64,000 bases of DNA, from IMG/VR virus record IMGVR_UViG_3300035102_000507; one strand, given 5' to 3'. A program made the translations under genes and the position numbers. Positions 17,643 to 52,722 of the stretch are shown here, in pieces; positions within the stretch are counted from its first letter, which is position 1; each line of letters starts with the position of its first letter. Under the pieces are notes generated by a model. That model was not told where the DNA came from. It did not search any database and saw nothing but the letters and a program-made list of their open reading frames with translations. The DNA comes from a virus.

Positions 17643-18437
17643 TCAACCGCCACCGGCGGTGGGAACGAGGTTGTAGAATACGCGGCTGGTTGGCGAAACC
17701 TGCACCACGCCGGGCACCCGCTTGAGGTGACGCCCGAAGGTGTTGTGGCTTGGAACAGCGTCATGCTCAATGCCCTGTTCCTCACGACACCAGTCAACAA
17801 ACCGTTTGTACAGGTGGATGGCCTGAGTCTTGAGTCGTCGCGGCATGGTGCCTCGGACGACGTCTACCACCTCGTAATGTGCGGCTATGAACTCTCGCAC
17901 CAGTTCCCCCGGACCGTCCGACGTGCCATGGGGTTCTCCGGCGGGATCGCTCTTGGCGCTGAACAGGTGGCAGAACTCGGCGTACAGGCGTTTCACGTCG
18001 TCTTCGCAGCCATCGCCGAGCTTGGCGGTCTGCACGGCGGTATGCATGGCCTGAGCGCGAAGCGCTGGTTTGAGTCGCAATGACGCGCAGGGGATGGCTC
18101 CCGCGTGACCGGCAGCTTCGTATCGCCCCTGTCTGCGGATGGCCGGGAGCACCTCGGAAGTGACCCACTTGCGGAAGCGCCTTGCTTCAGGCTTGCGGGA
18201 GCGAAAAACCAAGCCATAAAGCCCAGACTCGGAAATGATGTTCACTTCCTGCCTTCCACCAAGGGTGTCGGTATTACCGACCCCCTTTTCATCATCGTCT
18301 AAACGTGAAAGAGCATCGCGTGGATTACCAATATCAAGCACCCCACAAATATCCTTCGCCACGAACCACGGCTCGTCTTCGCGCATGACCACCCGCACCG
18401 CGTCGCCGTCAAAATCGAACGGAATCACGCTACTCAT
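17643..18437 (-). CDS. BRO-N domain antirepressor
   Basis: F.FDG..VRVV...EPWFVAKD.C.VL, ISESGLY.L.FRSRKPEA..F.KWVTSEVLP.IR. Confidence 0.9.
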   Translation of the reverse strand: MSSVIPFDFDGDAVRVVMREDEPWFVAKDICGVLDIGNPRDALSRLDDDEKGVGNTDTLGGRQEVNIISESGLYGLVFRSRKPEARRFRKWVTSEVLPAIRRQGRYEAAGHAGAIPCASLRLKPALRAQAMHTAVQTAKLGDGCEDDVKRLYAEFCHLFSAKSDPAGEPHGTSDGPGELVREFIAAHYEVVDVVRGTMPRRLKTQAIHLYKRFVDWCREEQGIEHDAVPSHNTFGRHLKRVPGVVQVSPTSRVFYNLVPTAGGG

Positions 18438-18711
18438 GGGCAGCCTCCCTTGAACGGGCGACGGGCTTCTCTGATGTGGTGCAGAGGGCGATCGGTCCGA
18501 ACTGCTCCTCGATGGCCTCGAAGGTCTCCGCAAGCCTGTTCCAGTGCTTGTCCACCATTTCGCCCAGCAGAACGCGAACGCTTTCGACGTCTGCCTCGCT
18601 GCCCCGCAGGGTGTCCCCGAGGCATTGCAGCGGCTGGATCAGGCCGTACAGATACATGTCCAATGATTGAAAACGGTGGTGCGGGCTGTCGTAGATGTCT
18701 TTTTCGCCCAT
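18430..18711 (-). CDS. Hypothetical protein, first gene of the antirepressor operon
   Basis: 93 aa, AAGGAG RBS overlapped by the antisense target site. Confidence 0.65.
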   Translation of the reverse strand: MGEKDIYDSPHHRFQSLDMYLYGLIQPLQCLGDTLRGSEADVESVRVLLGEMVDKHWNRLAETFEAIEEQFGPIALCTTSEKPVARSREAAHE

Positions 18712-18757
18712 GGTGGCAACTCCTTGTGTTTTCTAATGCCCCCCACGAAATATGGAA

Positions 18758-18831
18758 GCCGGGAGTTAGAACCCCACAAGGCAGGGCTGGGTATTTTAGG
18801 CCGAAGCCTTGGACATTTCCCCACTCCCGGC
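18758..18831 (-). ncRNA. C4-like antisense RNA (prophage A)
   Basis: GCCGGGAGU/ACUCCCGGC closing stem, AGGC-UUCG-GCCU hairpin, loop GCCUUGU and GUUCUA complementary to the upstream (18930-18946) and downstream (18722-18735) sites. Confidence 0.7.
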
Positions 18832-18959
18832 AAATATTTTGGATACATTGCGCCCAGTAGATCTGAAAGACAAACAAGGCAATGAGCTATGGGCACAAAA
18901 AACCGCACTCTGACGGGGTGGCGGCGTCCGCCTTGTGGAGTTTCTACGCTCCGTAGCAA

Positions 18960-18990
18960 ACAACTCGCCACAAACCGTCATGGATGTCAA
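18960..18990 (-). promoter_or_regulatory. Putative promoter of the c4-antirepressor operon
   Basis: TTGACA at 18990-18985; TTGACATCC...GGTTTGTGGCG is conserved with the locus at 52344. Confidence 0.5.
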
Positions 18991-19000
18991 GAAGGAAGGT

Positions 19001-19369
19001 TCAGTCGTCCTGCACAGGACGGTTTTGCCCCTCAAGTTTCTGATGACAGTGTTTGCAAAGAATAGCGTCCTGTCGAATCGCTTCACGACAGAAAGGGCAT
19101 CTGTATGTGGGTGGACCTGTCGTGCTCGGTTTATTGGACACCATTGCGCCTATGAGGCCCCAACCGTTCGAGCCGCCCCCCAAATTTTTCCCGCAACGGT
19201 CGCATCGCCATGGCTTCTTCTCCATAGAGGTGGACCCCCAAACCAGTATCCAAAGCCCGCATGTGAGCACCGAGAGCAAAAGGTGAAGCAGATGATTTGG
19301 TGTGTGCCGGGTGATTTTTACGTGGTCTTCACATTGCGGGCAGTATGCCGTTGAAGATTCAATGCCCAT
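19001..19369 (-). CDS. LITAF-like membrane-anchored zinc-binding protein plus zinc ribbon
   Basis: CPQC - NHLLHLLLSVLTCGLW - CDRC, then CPFC...CKHC. Confidence 0.65.
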   Translation of the reverse strand: MGIESSTAYCPQCEDHVKITRHTPNHLLHLLLSVLTCGLWILVWGSTSMEKKPWRCDRCGKNLGGGSNGWGLIGAMVSNKPSTTGPPTYRCPFCREAIRQDAILCKHCHQKLEGQNRPVQDD

Positions 19370-23661: not shown

Positions 23662-23993
23662 GGGAAAAGGCTCCTGAGGTAGCACAGGTGGGAAGGGCGG
23701 TTACACGAAAGGCACCACGGAAAACGCGATTCCATTTTCCATTCCATTTCGGAGATAACCCCGCGCGAGAAGCCCGAGATGAGAGCGACCCCTGCGGGCT
23801 CTTCGTGGCGAAGGACCCGTAATGCCTAGAGGCGGCACTCTCGGCAGAGTGACCTTTTGCGAAGTCTTTTAAAGAAAGGGGGGAGGGGAAAGGGCATGCG
23901 ACCAGCCTCCTGTTCGAAGTGGATGCGGTCGCTACCGCGCCCGCGTTTTTTTCGCACGCTGTGCAGTATGAAAAAGGGCGGTGTTCGCTCAGT

Positions 23994-24011
23994 GGGTAGC
24001 TATAGGGTAGC
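23994..24011. repeat. GGGTAGC direct repeat (candidate arm sites of the prophage A integrase)
   Basis: GGGTAGC-TATA-GGGTAGC about 50 bp from the tRNA core. Confidence 0.45.
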
Positions 24012-24053
24012 AAAAAATAAAACGGCCGCATGCAGTAATGCATGCAACCGTTT
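24012..24053 (-). terminator. Terminator downstream of the tRNA 3' end
   Basis: AAACGG..GCATGCA-GTAA-TGCATGC..CCGTTT hairpin with a T-tract on the minus strand. Confidence 0.55.
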
Positions 24054-24061
24054 GATTTTCT

Positions 24062-24111
24062 TGGTGGAGACGAAGAGATTTGAACTCTCGACCCCTGCCT
24101 TGCGAAGGCAA
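24062..24111 (-). pseudogene. 3' half of tRNA-Ala(CGC): att core at the prophage junction
   Basis: Reverse complement TTGCC-TTCGCAA-GGCAG GGGTC GAGAG-TTCAAAT-CTCTT CGTCTCC ACCA; no D-arm or 5' acceptor strand upstream. Confidence 0.85.
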
Positions 24112-24135
24112 GGGCTTACATCTCAAACGCTGTAA

Positions 24136-25254
24136 TCATTGAATCTTTTTTTCGTCAGTAATACAAAAATCCCCCGAAAAGGCTGATTTTGTATTACCAC
24201 TTTGTATTACCAAGTCCGGGACCGCGTTTGCCGCTGCCTTTCGCTGCTTGTCGAGCACGTGCTGGTAGTGTTTGTGGATCATGGTCGTCGTGCTGTGACC
24301 CATATTCTCAGAGAGTGCCTTGAGGTCTGCGCCGTTTGCCAGCGCCTCGGTCGCATGAGCGTGGCGGAGGTCGTAGGGGCGAATCCGGCGGGTGATGCCA
24401 GCCCGCTCAAGTGTCGCCTTCCATGCCTTCTTGATTTTCTGGACAGGCCGCCCCTTCCAATGGACCAGATACTCGGCCCCGATCTCTTGGTCTTCTGCCC
24501 ACCACTGCTCAAGGGCTGTGACGAGGCTGCCCTTCAGGGGGATATCTCTCCACGGCATTTCTGCGTTTTTGTCTGCCGACCAGATTCGCGCCACTTCTCT
24601 GCCGAAGTCTACATCGGTCCACTTGAGACGGAACATCTCCGATGGCCCTACTCTGACGCCGAGGGATAGGCCGAGGATGATAACGCGCTGAATGTGCGGA
24701 GCGGCCACGGCGAGCATGGATTGCAATTCATCCGTAGTCGGCGGCGGTATTCTCTCATCCGTTCCGCGTGGGCAGGTGAAGCGCTGGATGGGATTTGCTC
24801 CGATGAGCTCGGCGTCTTCTGCCCAGTTCATGGCGGCTTTGACAATGCCTACCTTTCGAACGATCCCGTTCATTTTTAGGCCTCGGTCACGCAGAGCTCT
24901 CACAAGTTGCCTCATGTGCGACTTGCTCAACTCAGAAGCCGGGACCATGCCAATCTCCGGCAACACTGCCTTGAGGTGATAGATGGTGTTCTTGAGGGGC
25001 TTGGGCTTAAGCTGGCGATCTTTCAGGTATGCCCACACGATAGCCTCGACGGTCAGGTCATCCCCGGACGCCTGAACTTCTTCTTCTGGCGCGAGCATTT
25101 CCGGCTCGAACTCCAGCCAGTGCCTGACTTGGCTGTCGTGCTTGCGGGCATCGCGCAGCGAATCAAAGTGCTGGGTCTGGATTTTCTTGGTGTAGGGGTT
25201 GCGCCAGTATACCCGGTAGGGCTTTGAGCGCCGGTTGAGCTTCTTGATCGCCAT
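24136..25254 (-). CDS. int: Tyrosine integrase
   Basis: GVR..E, RPYDLRH and GHS...M...Y catalytic motifs; N-terminal arm-binding domain. Confidence 0.95.
   Translation of the reverse strand: MAIKKLNRRSKPYRVYWRNPYTKKIQTQHFDSLRDARKHDSQVRHWLEFEPEMLAPEEEVQASGDDLTVEAIVWAYLKDRQLKPKPLKNTIYHLKAVLPEIGMVPASELSKSHMRQLVRALRDRGLKMNGIVRKVGIVKAAMNWAEDAELIGANPIQRFTCPRGTDERIPPPTTDELQSMLAVAAPHIQRVIILGLSLGVRVGPSEMFRLKWTDVDFGREVARIWSADKNAEMPWRDIPLKGSLVTALEQWWAEDQEIGAEYLVHWKGRPVQKIKKAWKATLERAGITRRIRPYDLRHAHATEALANGADLKALSENMGHSTTTMIHKHYQHVLDKQRKAAANAVPDLVIQSGNTKSAFSGDFCITDEKKIQ
24157..24212. repeat. Integrase arm-type repeats TTTGTATTAC inside the int 3' end
   Basis: TTTGTATTACCA at 24188 and 24201 (direct); inverted copy at about 24157-24168. 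Confidence 0.65.
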
Positions 25255-25263
25255 GGTTGCGAT

Positions 25264-25539
25264 TTACTGCTGTGTCGGCTTGCTTGTCAACTCGGCTACG
25301 AGGTCGTCCGCCGATTTCCCGGCGAAGAGAGAGCCTTTCGGCGCGGTAGGTTTGCGCTTGCGCTTTGGTTTGCGGGTGCCCTCGATGGCATTCAGAACTT
25401 CGCTCTTGTACCACCGCAGCCCGAGGCCTCGGCCTCTACCGAGGTTTACGGGCTGCACCTTGAGGCGGTCCAGCACGTTGCGGGCCGCTCCGGGTGTGGT
25501 TCTGAGGAGGTCAGCGACCTCGTGGGTGGTCAAGAGCAT
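25264..25539 (-). CDS. Excisionase-like HTH protein
   Basis: LLTTHEVADLL..T...RW motif, directly upstream of int. Confidence 0.75.
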   Translation of the reverse strand: MLLTTHEVADLLRTTPGAARNVLDRLKVQPVNLGRGRGLGLRWYKSEVLNAIEGTRKPKRKRKPTAPKGSLFAGKSADDLVAELTSKPTQQ

Positions 25540-25659
25540 ATTGATTGGTGTTCCGTGGTTAGCCTCTGGTTTTGATCATCCCAGGAAGATGTGCCCCGAT
25601 TTCCCCTAAAGTCATGAATGGACTATAATGAGTTTTTAACCTTTTGCCGTGAGGTGAAG

Positions 25660-48263: not shown

Positions 48264-49493
48264 ATGGGCAAATCGATTCAGGCCATGCGGGAAGAACGGA
48301 CCGCCATCGCGCGTGAAATCCGCAACCTGCATGACAACACCACCGACTGGGGCCAGGAGGCCAAGGACAAGTTCAACGAGCTCGAAGGCAAGATCACCGC
48401 TCTGGACGAGGAGATCGATCGTTATCAGAAAGTGCTCGACCTCGAAGCCAAGAATGCCAACGTCGTCGACCAGACCGCCGACAAGCTCGGCACGACTTTG
48501 GCGACCGCCGAAGATATCCTCAATGCCAAGAAGGACGTCTACGATGCATGGCTGCGGGGCGGTGCCAAGGCGGCCCGTGAGCGCATGGAAACCTATGCGG
48601 CCACCCTCGACGGCCTCGAAGTCGCGACCCCCGCTGACGGCGGGTACACCGTGCCCGATCAGGTTGCCTCCACTCTGCTGGAGGAACTGGCCCAGATCGG
48701 CGGCATGCGTCAGGCCGCGACCGTGCTGGCTACCGCCACCGGTCAGGAAATCAGTTTCCCGACCGCCGACGAGACCAGCCAGAAAGGTGAAATGCTGGGC
48801 GAGCGCACTCAGGCCGCTCACAGCGACCCGACCTTCGGAACTAAGGCCCTGAAGGTCTACAAGTTCTCCTCGAAGACCGTCGGCGTTTCCATCGAACTCT
48901 TGCAGGACACCACCATCGACCTTGAAGGCTTTATCCGCCGCGCCCTGGTCGACCGCCTGTCCCGCATCACCGAGGATTACTACCACGACGGCACCGGCTC
49001 CGATCAGCCTCAGGGCCTCCTGACTGCGGCCACGCAGGGCAAGGTCGGCGCATCCGGGCAGACCGCGACCGTCATCTACGAGGACCTGCTGGACCTGATC
49101 CACGCCGTCGACCCCGCTTATCGTCGTGGCGGCTCCTGCGGGTTCATGTTCAACGACACCACGCTGGGCGGCATTCGCAAGCTCGAAGACGACTACGGTC
49201 GCCCGCTCTGGCAGCCCAACGTCGTCGAAAGCGAGCCGTCCCGTATTCTCGGCTATCCGTACTGGGTTAACCAGGAAATGGCCGACATGGCCGCCAACGC
49301 GAAGTCCATCGTCTTCGGCGATCTGTCCAAGTTCATCATCCGCGATGCCATGGACATCCAGCTTCGCCGCTTCGACGATTCCCGCTATGCCGAGTACGGC
49401 ATGGTCGGCTTCCTCGCCATGATGCGTTCCGGTTCGGCGCTCATCGCTCCGTCCGGCTCCTGCGTGAAGTATTACCAGAACGCCGCGTCCTAA
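48264..49493 (+). CDS. Major capsid protein, HK97 family
   Basis: N-terminal delta coiled coil; GGY.VP, G.G..QP.G, GRP.W, FGD. Confidence 0.95.
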   Translation: MGKSIQAMREERTAIAREIRNLHDNTTDWGQEAKDKFNELEGKITALDEEIDRYQKVLDLEAKNANVVDQTADKLGTTLATAEDILNAKKDVYDAWLRGGAKAARERMETYAATLDGLEVATPADGGYTVPDQVASTLLEELAQIGGMRQAATVLATATGQEISFPTADETSQKGEMLGERTQAAHSDPTFGTKALKVYKFSSKTVGVSIELLQDTTIDLEGFIRRALVDRLSRITEDYYHDGTGSDQPQGLLTAATQGKVGASGQTATVIYEDLLDLIHAVDPAYRRGGSCGFMFNDTTLGGIRKLEDDYGRPLWQPNVVESEPSRILGYPYWVNQEMADMAANAKSIVFGDLSKFIIRDAMDIQLRRFDDSRYAEYGMVGFLAMMRSGSALIAPSGSCVKYYQNAAS

Positions 49494-49730: not shown

Positions 49731-50230
49731 TGAAACGGCTGCTTGTGATAGGCTCGGCTCCGTGCCTCCGGCGCGACCTCGCGAACTTGTACCTGCCCGC
49801 GTATGACGTGATGGCGGTGAACCGCGCCGCGCTGCGCGTGGTCGAGCCTATCCGGTGGCTGGTGACTTATCACCCAACTGACATGATCAGCGAGGACTGG
49901 CCGGGCCTGCGTCGCCGGTTCGGAGGCAACGACGATTACCAGATCGTTTTGCACCGCCGCAACCAGTGGGCAGAGCGCTTGTATGGCGACCGGGTGCAGT
50001 ACGCCACTCACCGCCCCGGGCGGACCGGCTCGTCCGCGCTGCTGGGTGTCTTCCACGGCATCCACCTTGGCTACACCAACATCACGCTTGCCGGCTGTCC
50101 GTTGGTCGAGGGGTATGCGACTTTTCAAGGGGGGTGGGAATCCGCGCGCGATGAGCTCGCAGCGGTCAAAACCCGCTCCCTCTCCGGCTGGACGAAAACT
50201 TTTCTGGAGGGATTGCAGTGCAACGCTTGA
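49730..50230 (+). CDS. MAF_flag10 / sialyltransferase-like Rossmann-fold protein
   Basis: LVIGSAP, D.MAVN and GSSA..G...G..LGY..I.LAGC motifs. Confidence 0.5.
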   Translation: MKRLLVIGSAPCLRRDLANLYLPAYDVMAVNRAALRVVEPIRWLVTYHPTDMISEDWPGLRRRFGGNDDYQIVLHRRNQWAERLYGDRVQYATHRPGRTGSSALLGVFHGIHLGYTNITLAGCPLVEGYATFQGGWESARDELAAVKTRSLSGWTKTFLEGLQCNA

Positions 50231-50805
50231 AACTGATTGCCGGCCCCGAGTGTGAGCCTGTGACGCTGGACGAAGTGAAAGCACAGCGTGCACGCACCGA
50301 CTCCCTCGATGATGCGTATCTGGAATCGTGCATTGCGGCCATGCGTCAGCATGCCGAGGCCGAGACAGGCCGTCAGATGGTGACAGCCGTTTACGAGCTC
50401 ACGGTCGAGGCATGGAACCCTGCCGCTGCAATTGAGCTGCCGAGGCCTCCGCTCCAGTCCGTGGAGAGCATCACCGCTGTCGCGGACGACGGCACCGAGG
50501 CGGTGGTTGATCCGTCTGCCTACGAGGTTGTGGCGGATACGATTGTAGGCTTCGTCAGGCCCGCGCCGGAACAAGTGTGGCCGGAGGCACGAACACTGGT
50601 GATCCGCTTCTCTGCGGGATACCCGACCGTCGGCAGCCCGGCCACGGCAACCACGCCGGAGCCCATCAAACAGTGGATGCTGGTGAGGATCGGCACGATG
50701 GACGAATACCGCGAGGCCGTTGTTTCCGGGACAATCGTGGGCAAACTGCCGCGTGATTTCGTGGATGCCCTGCTTGACCCCTACAGAATCCCCTGGGTGG
50801 TGTAG
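50218..50805 (+). CDS. Head-tail connector (gp6-like)
   Basis: EPVTLDEVK, LP.PPLQSV.SI, P..IKQW.L motifs. Confidence 0.85.
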   Translation: MQRLKLIAGPECEPVTLDEVKAQRARTDSLDDAYLESCIAAMRQHAEAETGRQMVTAVYELTVEAWNPAAAIELPRPPLQSVESITAVADDGTEAVVDPSAYEVVADTIVGFVRPAPEQVWPEARTLVIRFSAGYPTVGSPATATTPEPIKQWMLVRIGTMDEYREAVVSGTIVGKLPRDFVDALLDPYRIPWVV

Positions 50806-50808
50806 GTC

Positions 50809-51129
50809 ATGCGCGCAGGAAAACTCAGGCACATCATCACCATCCAGCGGCCCACCGACACCCGGAACGACTACGGCGAAGTTGTCGAGGGTTGGGAAGA
50901 CGTCATTACTACGCGGGCCAGTGCGGAGCCGTTGCAGGGCAGGGAGTATTTCGCGTCGCAGCAGGTGCGCAGTGAAACGACCACCCGTTTCCGCATCCGT
51001 TGGCCGGGTATGCCCATCACGCCGGATATGCGCGTGATGTTTGAAGGCCGGGCTTACGACATTGACAGCGTGATCGACCCCAATGAGCGGCATCGTGAGC
51101 TGCACGTCATGGCGGTCGAGAAGAAGTAG
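50809..51129 (+). CDS. Head-tail adaptor / head closure protein
   Basis: MRAGKLRH.I.IQ, RE.FA.QQ, F.IR, MRV.F.G..Y.I. Confidence 0.9.
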   Translation: MRAGKLRHIITIQRPTDTRNDYGEVVEGWEDVITTRASAEPLQGREYFASQQVRSETTTRFRIRWPGMPITPDMRVMFEGRAYDIDSVIDPNERHRELHVMAVEKK

Positions 51130-51152
51130 AAAAGCCCCGCCGGAGCGGGGCC
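51130..51152. terminator. Hairpin between convergent genes
   Basis: AAAAGCCCCGC-CGGA-GCGGGGC. Confidence 0.6.
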
Positions 51153-51184
51153 ATGGTTCTTTGATAGTCGAATAGGGTATCGGG

Positions 51185-52078
51185 TCAGATTTTACCCGCA
51201 ATCTTCAAGGCCTGCTCCGTCTGCTTGGCTGTTTCGCTGTAAACCTCGGCGGCGACGCCCATCAGGTTATAGCAAAGCCCCATCAGGCGGTAGTAGCCTT
51301 GGAGGTGCAGGTTCATCGCGGCCTTGTTTTCCTTCGAGCCGTATTCAGCCGTCCTGATCTTGTAGCGCATGTCCTCGAAGTGGTGGCGCTGGAGCGTCAG
51401 GAATGAGTCTTCTTCGGTCTTGTAGAGGTCAAGCTCCCTGCTGAACTCCAAGAGGTCGGCGCCCGAAAGCGTCGGGGGAGGGGCCGGGAGGGCCTTGGGT
51501 TTCTGGTTTGCCTTGGCGACAACGGCGTCAATGCGTTGCTGGAGGAAGTCACAGGCCTCGCGCACCTGATCGACGGTCAGGTCGTCAACGGTCGTCACGC
51601 CGAACTTGGCGTGGATGAGCTTCCATGCATCACGGAAGGAGAGCGGGGCAAGGCCGACGTAGACCGCGACCAGGTCCTTGAGGGGGCGGCGGTCTGCTTT
51701 AGTGGAGAGGGCGCAGTGGTAACCACCTGTCTGCCGGATGGACGGCAAGACTTCCGAGGCTACCCAGTTGGTGAACCTATCGGCTTCCGGCTTGTTGGAG
51801 CGAAACGCCAGCTTGTAGACAGCGGGCTCCGAGATGACGGTGATCGGCGAATAGAGCCCACCACGACCTGTCTTTTTAGGGGGACGGAGTTTCCGCACCC
51901 CTTTCCATTCGTCAGGGACGGAAGCAAGCGTGTTGCTACGCCAGGCAATATCCAACGCGGAACAAACATCCTTCGCCACGAACCAAGGCTGTCCCTCGTC
52001 GTAGACGGTGCGGATAGGGGTTTCGTTGAAGCTGAACGGGGTGACAGCGGCACAGTCGGCTTGGGCGGTGTTAGGCAT
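51185..52078 (-). CDS. BRO-N domain antirepressor
   Basis: F.F....IRTV...QPWFVAKDVC, ISEP.VYKL.FRS.KPEA..F..WV..EVLPSIR. Confidence 0.9.
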   Translation of the reverse strand: MPNTAQADCAAVTPFSFNETPIRTVYDEGQPWFVAKDVCSALDIAWRSNTLASVPDEWKGVRKLRPPKKTGRGGLYSPITVISEPAVYKLAFRSNKPEADRFTNWVASEVLPSIRQTGGYHCALSTKADRRPLKDLVAVYVGLAPLSFRDAWKLIHAKFGVTTVDDLTVDQVREACDFLQQRIDAVVAKANQKPKALPAPPPTLSGADLLEFSRELDLYKTEEDSFLTLQRHHFEDMRYKIRTAEYGSKENKAAMNLHLQGYYRLMGLCYNLMGVAAEVYSETAKQTEQALKIAGKI

Positions 52079-52123
52079 GATGCCTCCTACTGTTTCTCTA
52101 GTGGCATCACCGAAATGAATGAT

Positions 52124-52197
52124 GCCGGGAGCTAGAACCTCAGTAGGCGAGGCTGGCTATTTTGGGCAAACGCCTTGGACATTTCACCACTCCCGGC
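52124..52197 (-). ncRNA. C4-like antisense RNA (prophage B)
   Basis: Same 74-nt scaffold as 18758-18831; loop GCCUACU in a CCUC/GAGG stem is complementary to AGUAGGC (52285-52291) and to AGUAGG over the BRO RBS (52086-52091). Confidence 0.7.
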
Positions 52198-52352
52198 AAC
52201 TTGGGTGCGAATATACCATGCCTCATGGTAGGGCCACAATGGGCAAGAGGCATGAAAAAGCCCCGGCTGTCGGGCGGGATGACCGCCTACTGGAGTTTCT
52301 AGGCTCCGTGCAGTCACCACGCCACAAACCGGGGCGGATGTCAAGGGGAAGG

Positions 52353-52688
52353 TTAGTTGCACAGGTGAAGGCCTTTTTGGATTAGTGGCATAAGGTCTCT
52401 ATTGGTGTAGTCACGGGCCTTTCTGTGTGGGTTCCCCTCGGCATCCTTTAGATTGGCGCGGTCGAACCAAGCCATAGCTTGCCCGTTGATGGCATATGTG
52501 TACCCATCAGAGCCGTTTATCCATACGGCCTTCCGTCCATTCCCGAGGTTTTTGCAGTACAGGGTTCCGCTGCTAAAGGTGAACGGCCAAACTCCACCTA
52601 AGTTTTTTTTGTACACATGGGCAGAGTTGGCGAAAGCGGGGCCAGGGGCCAGTGTTAGGGCTAGTAGGATAAAAATAGTTTTCATCAT
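52353..52688 (-). CDS. Exported YebY/DUF2511-like protein
   Basis: Signal peptide; WPFT...G.L.C and TYAING.A motifs. Confidence 0.65.
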   Translation of the reverse strand: MMKTIFILLALTLAPGPAFANSAHVYKKNLGGVWPFTFSSGTLYCKNLGNGRKAVWINGSDGYTYAINGQAMAWFDRANLKDAEGNPHRKARDYTNRDLMPLIQKGLHLCN

Positions 52689-52722
52689 GAGGGTATCCCT
52701 ACCTTTGTTTTGTTAGGAAGAA

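Follow-up and report, generated by a model that had tools for sequence, protein, structure and literature searches.

Organization of the antirepressor cassette

In the window, by which we mean the whole stretch of 64,000 nucleotides analyzed here, a compact cassette occupies positions 51185-52344 of the minus strand (locus B, Table 1). When both strands of 51700-52700 were read, all of its elements were found on the minus strand, in the order TTGACA hexamer, leader hairpin, upstream site, GC-rich hairpin region with UUUUU, a 52-nt spacer and a 74-nt RNA (RNA B), the latter made up of an 8-bp closing stem, hairpin 1 and hairpin 2. On the 3' side of the RNA come a further hairpin, the motif CUAGA, a CAGUAGG site joined to the Shine-Dalgarno (SD) sequence and, lastly, the ATG of a 297-aa open reading frame. 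The word CAGTAGG, read as such or as CCTACTG, occurs six times in the 64-kb window, and three of these six occurrences are found inside a 207-nt stretch of locus B.

The product of the 297-aa reading frame matched Pfam Bro-N (E = 4e-20) and the PHROG anti-repressor Ant (E = 1e-35). Together with the overlap between CAGUAGG and the SD, this bears out the preliminary description of the locus, which had placed a target site over the ribosome binding site of a BRO antirepressor gene. PHROG searches also agreed with its claim of two co-resident prophages, as the window was found to hold two adjacent prophages with one copy of the RNA each. Prophage A (approximately 1-24 kb, minus strand) carries terminase, portal, protease, major head and primase genes. 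Prophage B, which is lambda-like and reaches from approximately 24.1 kb to the end of the window, has genes for an integrase, RecT, a CI-like repressor and DnaB as well as terminase, portal, capsid, tape measure and J genes. Since the integrase gene at 24136-25254 fits the left end of prophage B, the window does not contain the integrase of prophage A itself. No tRNA gene was found in the window, and hence none at the prophage junction (approximately 23700-25600). Cassette B forms part of a minus-strand insert (50125-52688), flanked in a plus-strand late operon by the capsid gene (48264-49493) on one side and by the head-tail genes on the other. Within the insert are a gene for a DUF2511-like secreted protein (52353-52688), the RNA, the antirepressor gene (ant) and a 358-aa reading frame (50125-51201), for which no family match was obtained.

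Table 1. Positions of the elements of locus B and of its paralog, locus A, in the window.
Feature	Position	Strand	Evidence or remark
Locus B
-35-like hexamer TTGACA, putative operon promoter	52339-52344	-	Conserved spacing to leader start
Leader hairpin I, GGAG-CCUAGAAA-CUCC, with a1-like CUAGAA (52302-52297) in the loop	52292-52307	-	Fold prediction and covariation
Upstream b1-like target CAGUAGGCG	52284-52292	-	9-nt perfect complement to loop region CGCCUACUG
Leader hairpin(s), terminator-like: GGCGG..CCGCC, loop CCCG(A/U)CAG, stem, UUUUU	52255-52287	-	Stem covariation
74-nt C4-like RNA B, GCCGGGAG to CUCCCGGC	52124-52197	-	Covariance model R1, 110.5 bits; fold z = -3.8
Hairpin-2 loop GCCUACU, b'-like specificity element	52142-52148	-	Complementary to upstream and SD sites
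Junction UUCUAG between hairpin 2 and closing stem, a'-like second pairing element	52132-52137	-	Covariation
Hairpin GGCAUCA / UGAUGCC directly 3' of RNA B, GGC common to closing stem	52103-52126	-	
Downstream a2-like site CUAGA	52097-52101	-	Complementary to junction
Downstream b2-like target CAGUAGG (52092-52086), overlapping SD AGGAGG (52088-52083)	52083-52092	-	
Antirepressor gene B, 297 aa, BRO-N, ATG at 52078	51185-52078	-	Pfam and PHROG matches
Locus A
74-nt RNA A in the neighboring prophage, loop GCCUUGU at 18782-18776	18758-18831	-	Alignment, R1
Upstream target CCACAAGGC, CACAAGG at 18937-18931	18930-18938	-	
Downstream target CACAAGG, over SD of 93-aa reading frame	18722-18728	-	
Hairpin 3' of RNA A	18737-18760	-	

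A second copy in the neighboring prophage

By local BLAST of the locus B stretch, the sole paralog in the window was located at 18720-19001 on the same strand. Pairwise alignment of the two copies showed that the loop dinucleotide UG in A is replaced by AC in B, and that CA is replaced by GU at both target sites, i.e. an exact compensation within conserved flanks. The loops accordingly read GCCUUGU and GCCUACU, and the targets ACAAGG and AGUAGG, in A and B, respectively. Compensatory pairs also distinguish the two RNAs internally, with C-G in A becoming U-A in B in hairpin 2 and G-C becoming U-G in hairpin 1, and both fold better than shuffled sequence (z = -3.8 for B and -3.5 for A). A second C4-like RNA of 74 nt, with the length and scaffold of the prophage A RNA and with the loop and both targets changed in step, had been claimed from a first inspection, and the claim holds in every part according to the alignment, the fold z-scores and the covariance model described below.

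Locus A differs from locus B in its coding part. Its RNA is followed by a 93-aa reading frame (18430-18711), which overlaps by 8 nt a gene for a BRO-N antirepressor; the latter probably starts with the ATG at 18437 and extends to 17643. Antirepressors A and B have only the N-terminal domain in common, with 43% identity. The loop word GCCUUGU occurs once more in sense orientation in locus A, within the spacer (18874-18880, minus strand). This second copy probably reflects ancestry and not function, as the homologous spacer of another locus (L009) has the similar word UCUUGU despite a different loop code.

Relatives and RNA structure

A covariance model (R1) was built from copies A and B, as had been proposed in the preliminary description. 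It gave 12 matches in 8 out of 101 genomes around the nearest genome (G001); 11 of these were convincing and one (L011) was judged spurious. Another 12 copies were identified on IMG/VR viral contigs, retrieved via a degenerate pattern, and seven more in metagenome contigs. A scan of genome contigs with the degenerate pattern added two copies in GTDB genomes titled Pseudodesulfovibrio and Desulfovibrio; the exact pattern had no match in these contigs. After removal of duplicates, 27 distinct loci were compared, which derive from genomes of Desulfovibrionaceae, from viral contigs of IMG/VR and from metagenomes. For locus A, blastn in "distant" mode found no match among 50,697 phage records.

In the alignment of the 27 RNAs, 98.5% of the cells are paired, both sides have changed in 10 out of 20 pairs and none of 500 shuffles equaled the observed signal, figures that overstate independence given that the alignment is model-fitted and the loci are related. 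The pairing signal is abolished when pair partners are slid against each other.

The gene downstream is of an antirepressor type almost everywhere, as seen from gene identity and position, its control by the RNA being predicted. Out of nine tested first reading frames directly downstream of the RNA, six contain BRO-N, Phage_pRha or P22_AR_N and three had no Pfam match. Where the first reading frame is small (75-113 aa), the overlapping second one encodes BRO-N in 9 out of 10 loci, once together with ANT/KilAC. The small reading frames themselves are hardly conserved among loci, and that of locus A is not homologous to Icd of phage P1.

At gathering score no Rfam family matched anywhere in the window. 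The only relevant match at E <= 10 was sRNA-Xcc1 (RF02221), over the full model length, with 19.8 bits for B and 29.1 bits for A. Both scores lie below the gathering cut-off of 53 bits, though two relatives linked by R1 do exceed it (60.5 bits for L010 and 53.9 bits for L007). The Rfam C4 model (RF01695, cut-off 45 bits) had no match at E <= 10 in 51800-52600 or 18500-19200; the P1 positive control scored 68.8 bits. Likewise, neither c4-a1b1 (RF03163) nor isrK (RF01394) matched the leader of A or B at E <= 10, the corresponding P1 controls giving 51 and 35 bits. As P1 c4 in turn goes undetected by R1, the case for homology between the RNA itself and C4 rests on architecture, graded intermediates and a shared leader.

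Covariation of loop and junction with their target sites

The hairpin-2 loop differs at nearly every locus, and both the upstream site and the site fused to the SD track it, so that approximately 20 loop codes occur among the 27 loci. A constant part, GCC-U, pairs with AGG(C) of the SD, and the code consists of the variable 2-3 nt 3' of it. Apart from the codes of A and B, the loops read include GCCUGUU, GCCAAGU, GCCUUUGG, GCCUCUGG, UCCUUGAG, UCUGUGA, CUCCUAGG, UCUUGGA, UCCUGUAG, GCCUGUAG, UCCGUAGG, GCCUUCU, GCCUAGUG, GCCUUAGA, ACCUAUGG, GCCUCAAG, ACCUUAGG, GCCGUUAG and GCCGAGUG, a list that is not exhaustive. Hairpin 2 forms a perfect Watson-Crick run of at least 7 nt with its own upstream site in 24 and with its own SD site in 25 of the 27 loci. 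Cognate runs have a mean of 8.3 nt at the upstream site and 7.1 nt at the SD site, as compared to 5.3 and 4.5 nt for non-cognate combinations. In locus B the match is also longer upstream (9 nt) than at the SD site (7 nt).

A second covarying element is the junction 3' of hairpin 2, whose changes are matched in the leader-hairpin loop and at a site located a few nucleotides 5' of the SD site. Its variants include UUCUAA, UUAGAA, UUCGAA, UCUGAA, UUUUGAA, UUGUGAG, GUGACUAG, UGCUAA and others. Hence, two segments of the RNA covary with four sites of the surrounding transcript. When RNA-target assignments were shuffled, the observed sum was reached in none of 20,000 shuffles, for loop sites and junction sites alike, a result to be read as descriptive and not as a true probability because the loci are kin. 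The preliminary description had taken the covariation of three sites in one window as evidence for functional pairing. Now that the pattern recurs with some 20 codes in 27 loci, it appears very probable from sequence comparison that pairing between loop and targets is functional at all.

Exact runs and permutation were used since, in this GC-rich DNA, RNAduplex gave noisy results when target windows were wide, with the cognate RNA ranking best for no more than about half of the targets. Loop calling based on MFE structures proved unreliable. Between CAUUUC, which lies downstream of the RNA and constitutes the loop of the 3' hairpin, and GAAAUG of hairpin 1 there is complementarity, for which no covariation was observed.

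A few loci depart from the general pattern. In a Pseudodesulfovibrio MAG (L003:1400-1586, identical to L025), the loop UCCAAGUU fits the upstream site of the same locus, AACUUGG, whereas the SD site, AACAGG, displays the code of L009 and L022, which belong to another phage type. This locus probably contains a recombinant downstream module, in which case the antirepressor module would have been freed from its own RNA. In L013 (2685-2950), the RNA is present together with a2/b2 sites and a gene for a BRO-N/ANT protein, but the upstream a1b1 leader module is missing altogether. In L029 and L033 the exception amounts to a single mismatch or wobble at the upstream site.

Leader and flanking hairpins

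In 23 out of 27 loci, the conserved leader start ACGGAGC is preceded at a distance of 34-37 nt by a TTGA(C/T)(A/G) hexamer; the -10 region is weak. Neither the consensus promoter scanner at TTGACA nor the simple terminator scanner at the leader made a call, and the predicted promoter and terminator consequently rest on conservation. Leader hairpin I is predicted in all leaders and aligns with the a1 hairpin of P1. The stem of the terminator covaries in distant loci, where it appears as GCCGC/GCGG, GCCA/UGGC, CCCACG/CGUGGG and GCCAA/UUGGC. The upstream module is a predicted terminated leader of approximately 55-60 nt.

The terminator loop, CCCGUCAGA, is strikingly conserved across leaders. Its motif CCCG(U/A)CAG(A) is seen at 52262-52270 and 18913-18921 (minus strand) and in all leaders, P1 having CCGAUA at this place. 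No covariation was detected for long-range pairing of CCCGUCAGA with the 5' end of the leader, nor was any pairing partner or function found for the terminator-loop motif. An antiterminator was also considered, in which the GGCGG..CCGCC hairpin would be in competition with the terminator and binding of the RNA at b1 would open this hairpin. This is plausible for A, B and their close kin. Confidence in it is low, however, as L007, L008 and L010, which are distant members, show no evident hairpin of this kind.

On the other side of the RNA, a 9-10-bp hairpin is predicted in almost all 27 loci, formed by very different sequences and without a following U-run. It may be a processing mark or a stabilizer of the RNA. 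This hairpin, the terminated leader and the covarying junction had no place in the preliminary description.

Proposed mechanism

We consider it probable that locus B serves a lambda-like prophage as its immunity-RNA cassette, of the same design as immI of P1 and seqA-CI-seqC of P4. In the proposed scheme, one promoter would drive a leader with a1- and b1-like sites and a leaky terminator, followed by the 74-nt RNA, the hairpin, the a2- and b2-like sites and the antirepressor gene. The RNA would presumably be cut from the operon transcript; in P1 and P4, the RNA is excised by RNase P. It would then pair with a2/b2 by means of the hairpin-2 loop (b') and the 3' junction (a') and thereby cover the SD. 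With the SD covered and the antirepressor left untranslated, lysogeny would be maintained. Repression by such occlusion of the SD is, as a model, given high credence. The upstream a1/b1 copy would bind the same RNA, and its role could be that of a decoy, of a terminated small RNA or of an element favoring termination of the leader. Transcription and processing of the RNA, the sign of the regulation and action in trans are what we infer from this layout.

As all elements are on one transcript, pairing in cis looks in sequence like action in trans, and the loop might conceivably pair, in the manner of a leader switch, with the upstream or SD site of its own transcript only, with no stable trans-acting RNA and no immunity or heteroimmunity between phages. 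Such a reading is in keeping with the presence of five elements within approximately 270 nt of one predicted transcript, with the failure of the scanners to find a separate strong promoter or terminator for the RNA, and with the GGC common to the 3' hairpin and the closing stem, which suggests alternative folds. It is nevertheless unlikely, as the RNA is processed and trans-acting in the P1 and P4 systems, whose layout is homologous, and as the conserved, compensated closing stem suits a stable excised RNA. Moreover, different codes in co-resident copies would be expected for action in trans and would be needless for folding in cis.

It is far less probable that the three sites are DNA operators of a phage repressor, two direct and one inverted, with specificity arising from protein-DNA recognition. 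Repeated 7-9-bp sites near the promoter of an antirepressor operon could serve this purpose, and a C1 operator is indeed present at the P1 c4 promoter. The inverted copy, however, lies exactly in a hairpin loop whose stem varies by compensatory pairs, the downstream copy is joined to the SD in every locus, the second covarying pair of elements has the same antisense geometry and the sites are located 50-250 nt downstream of the -35 box. Equally improbable is a trans-acting sRNA of the sRNA-Xcc1 type with mainly host-gene targets and a secondary local complementarity, as might be suspected from the best Rfam model and from the link of sRNA-Xcc1 to HrpG/HrpX in the literature, since the variable loop tracks local sites in 24-25 out of 27 loci, does so also in the loci scoring as sRNA-Xcc1 (L035-L042, L045-L046), and no host target could follow some 20 codes.

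Predicted insulation between the two prophages

Given that the variable 2-3 bases set the specificity, RNA B (..UACU) should not silence the antirepressor gene of prophage A (..ACAAGG), nor should RNA A silence that of prophage B. Cross pairs retain only GCCU:AGGC and have two central mismatches, namely U.U and G.G for the A loop on the B target and A.A and C.C for the B loop on the A target, none of which is rescued by wobble. For the SD site, duplex formation is predicted to yield -21.2 kcal/mol for A on A and -23.7 for B on B, compared to -15.0 for A on B and -15.8 for B on A, i.e. a predicted penalty of approximately 6-8 kcal/mol for cross pairs. At the upstream site, the predicted values are -29.9 and -29.8 kcal/mol for cognate and -25.9 and -20.6 kcal/mol for non-cognate pairs. 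Orthogonality of the two RNAs, and with it the insulated antirepressor control suggested in the preliminary description, is a prediction regarded as likely.

Polylysogens mostly have different codes in their copies, with two copies and two codes in the window, three and three in G001, and two and two in G056. An exception is the genome IMG 2576861818, in which two near-identical copies have one code. For tandem prophages, different codes may offer a route to separate induction controls.

Comparison with known RNA immunity systems

The closest parallel is immI of phage P1. Its record annotates promoters, a1, b1, a 77-nt c4 RNA, a2, b2, icd and the overlapping ant1, with a C1 operator at the c4 promoter. 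According to the sequence and the Rfam alignment, P1 b' (UCACUAAC) is the second hairpin loop and a' (CUGUCAA) the 3' junction, exactly as at locus B; a1 lies in a hairpin loop with b1 directly after it, and b2 abuts the SD. The order of elements is the same in both systems, i.e. promoter, a1 hairpin loop, b1, hairpin with U-run, an RNA of approximately 75 nt, a2, b2 at the SD, reading frame and antirepressor. The small reading frame of copy A overlaps the antirepressor start in the manner of icd and ant1, whereas copy B has no small reading frame. The leaders can also be aligned (MAFFT). After b1, P1 reads GCGGAC-AA-CCGC ... CCGAUA ... GCGGU-A-UUUUUGUG, and the window leaders read GCGGAC-R-CCGCC ... 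CCGUCA ... GCGGU-UUUUUGUG. The isrK model overlaps the a1b1 leader of P1, which is the part aligned to the window leaders.

Several differences from C4 were noted. The closing stem has 8 bp here and approximately 17 in C4, hairpin 1 is longer here and has internal loops, the specificity loop has 7-8 nt compared to approximately 12, and the a-b spacing is 3-5 nt compared to 7-22. Furthermore, the window RNAs have a hairpin between the RNA and a2, and the small reading frame is unrelated to Icd. The hosts are Desulfovibrionaceae with integrated siphovirus-like prophages, whereas P1 is a plasmid prophage.

The structural and positional features of the C4/CI-type class are found here. The RNA of approximately 75 nt has a closing stem around two hairpins; the b' loop and a' junction are complementary to downstream sites, with b2 over the ribosome binding site of the first reading frame; a duplicate of the target site lies upstream of the RNA on the same strand in 24 out of 27 loci; and, going by gene identity, position and prophage context, an antirepressor gene of a temperate phage follows downstream. 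Antisense control of ant, and heteroimmunity by matched changes, have been known since 1990 as the P1/P7 principle. The present finding is thus conceptually not new, and its value lies in the natural code table and in a re-reading of sRNA-Xcc1.

The elements a'/b', a1b1 and a2b2 were described by Weinberg et al. 2010, together with the proposal of a competition for C4 by a1b1 (PMC2864571). The IsrK-C4 system is present in P4, P1, P7 and N15 (PMC3632133), and full ant repression needs C4 (PMC8198154). Heteroimmunity of P1 and P7 has been ascribed to minor differences in ImmI (PMC6906374), and the two prophages of the window resemble these phages in that a predicted difference in specificity goes with matched changes in RNA and target.

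The seqA-CI RNA (seqB)-seqC arrangement of P4 is likewise similar, having a processed leader RNA with complementary sites both upstream and downstream (PMC4825925, PMC3632133) and a terminator-like element after the upstream site. P4 CI exerts its effect on replication genes by terminating their transcription prematurely, whereas at locus B the SD of the antirepressor gene would be covered; termination control at locus B may be hypothesized in addition. In the IsrK-orf45-anrP system of Gifsy-1, IsrK activates anrP translation (Hershko-Shalev et al. 2016, PMC4825925). This system shares a promoter-proximal terminated sRNA and a read-through transcript that gives a processed RNA, a small reading frame and an antirepressor, but the element described here is predicted to pair directly with the SD. 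As the upstream partner IsrK activates antirepressor translation in Gifsy-1, the net logic of such cassettes is not uniform.

As for sRNA-Xcc1, the window RNAs match this model over its full length and have the same three-part architecture. They differ in the single-stranded part of hairpin 1, which is GAAAUGUCCA here and AAUACAA in sRNA-Xcc1. In the literature, sRNA-Xcc1 appears as an integron-borne, virulence-linked trans-acting sRNA tied to HrpG/HrpX and not as a phage immunity RNA. Among kin Desulfovibrionaceae genomes, the loci L035-L042, L045 and L046 score as sRNA-Xcc1 with up to 69.6 bits, and all have the design with TTGACA, a1b1 leader, terminator, RNA and SD site, with a covarying code per locus. 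The leader of the window type is also found at L047 (56 bits), a canonical Rfam C4 locus of the same bacterial order. Because leader and cassette design are common to all three, C4, the sRNA-Xcc1 type and the window type can be seen as a continuum, in which the window RNAs are one divergent branch. In Rfam, C4 (RF01695) and c4-a1b1 (RF03163) form clan CL00128, and sRNA-Xcc1 is in no clan with C4. Genome G056 has 10 sRNA-Xcc1-type matches, three of them within approximately 4 kb on one contig (C50; 56830, 59950 and 60723), a cluster that recalls the tandem copies reported in Xylella (PMC12189769).

These relations suggest that sRNA-Xcc1-type RNAs are immunity RNAs controlling antirepressors. 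A wider proposal, which we offer tentatively and regard as somewhat doubtful, is that these cassettes and the whole sRNA-Xcc1 family are C4-class immunity RNAs with at least 20 mutually orthogonal codes of 2-4 nt, driven by selection for prophage coexistence, and that the a1b1 leader is a second sRNA (decoy or attenuator) in a two-RNA toggle. If true, a virulence-sRNA family would be reassigned and a ready-made set of orthogonal riboregulators would be at hand. For an intermolecular RNA-RNA contact, the natural covariation series provided by these loci is unusually clean, comprising approximately 20 codes and four target sites. The loci also extend the range of P1/P4-type RNA immunity switches to Desulfovibrionaceae, i.e. 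to sulfate-reducer prophages, on a scaffold missed by current Rfam models. Judged by its sequence, RNA B adds a new, divergent representative to the IsrK/C4 antisense immunity systems already known, for which the term "C4-like" holds with respect to architecture and logic and not to membership in Rfam C4.
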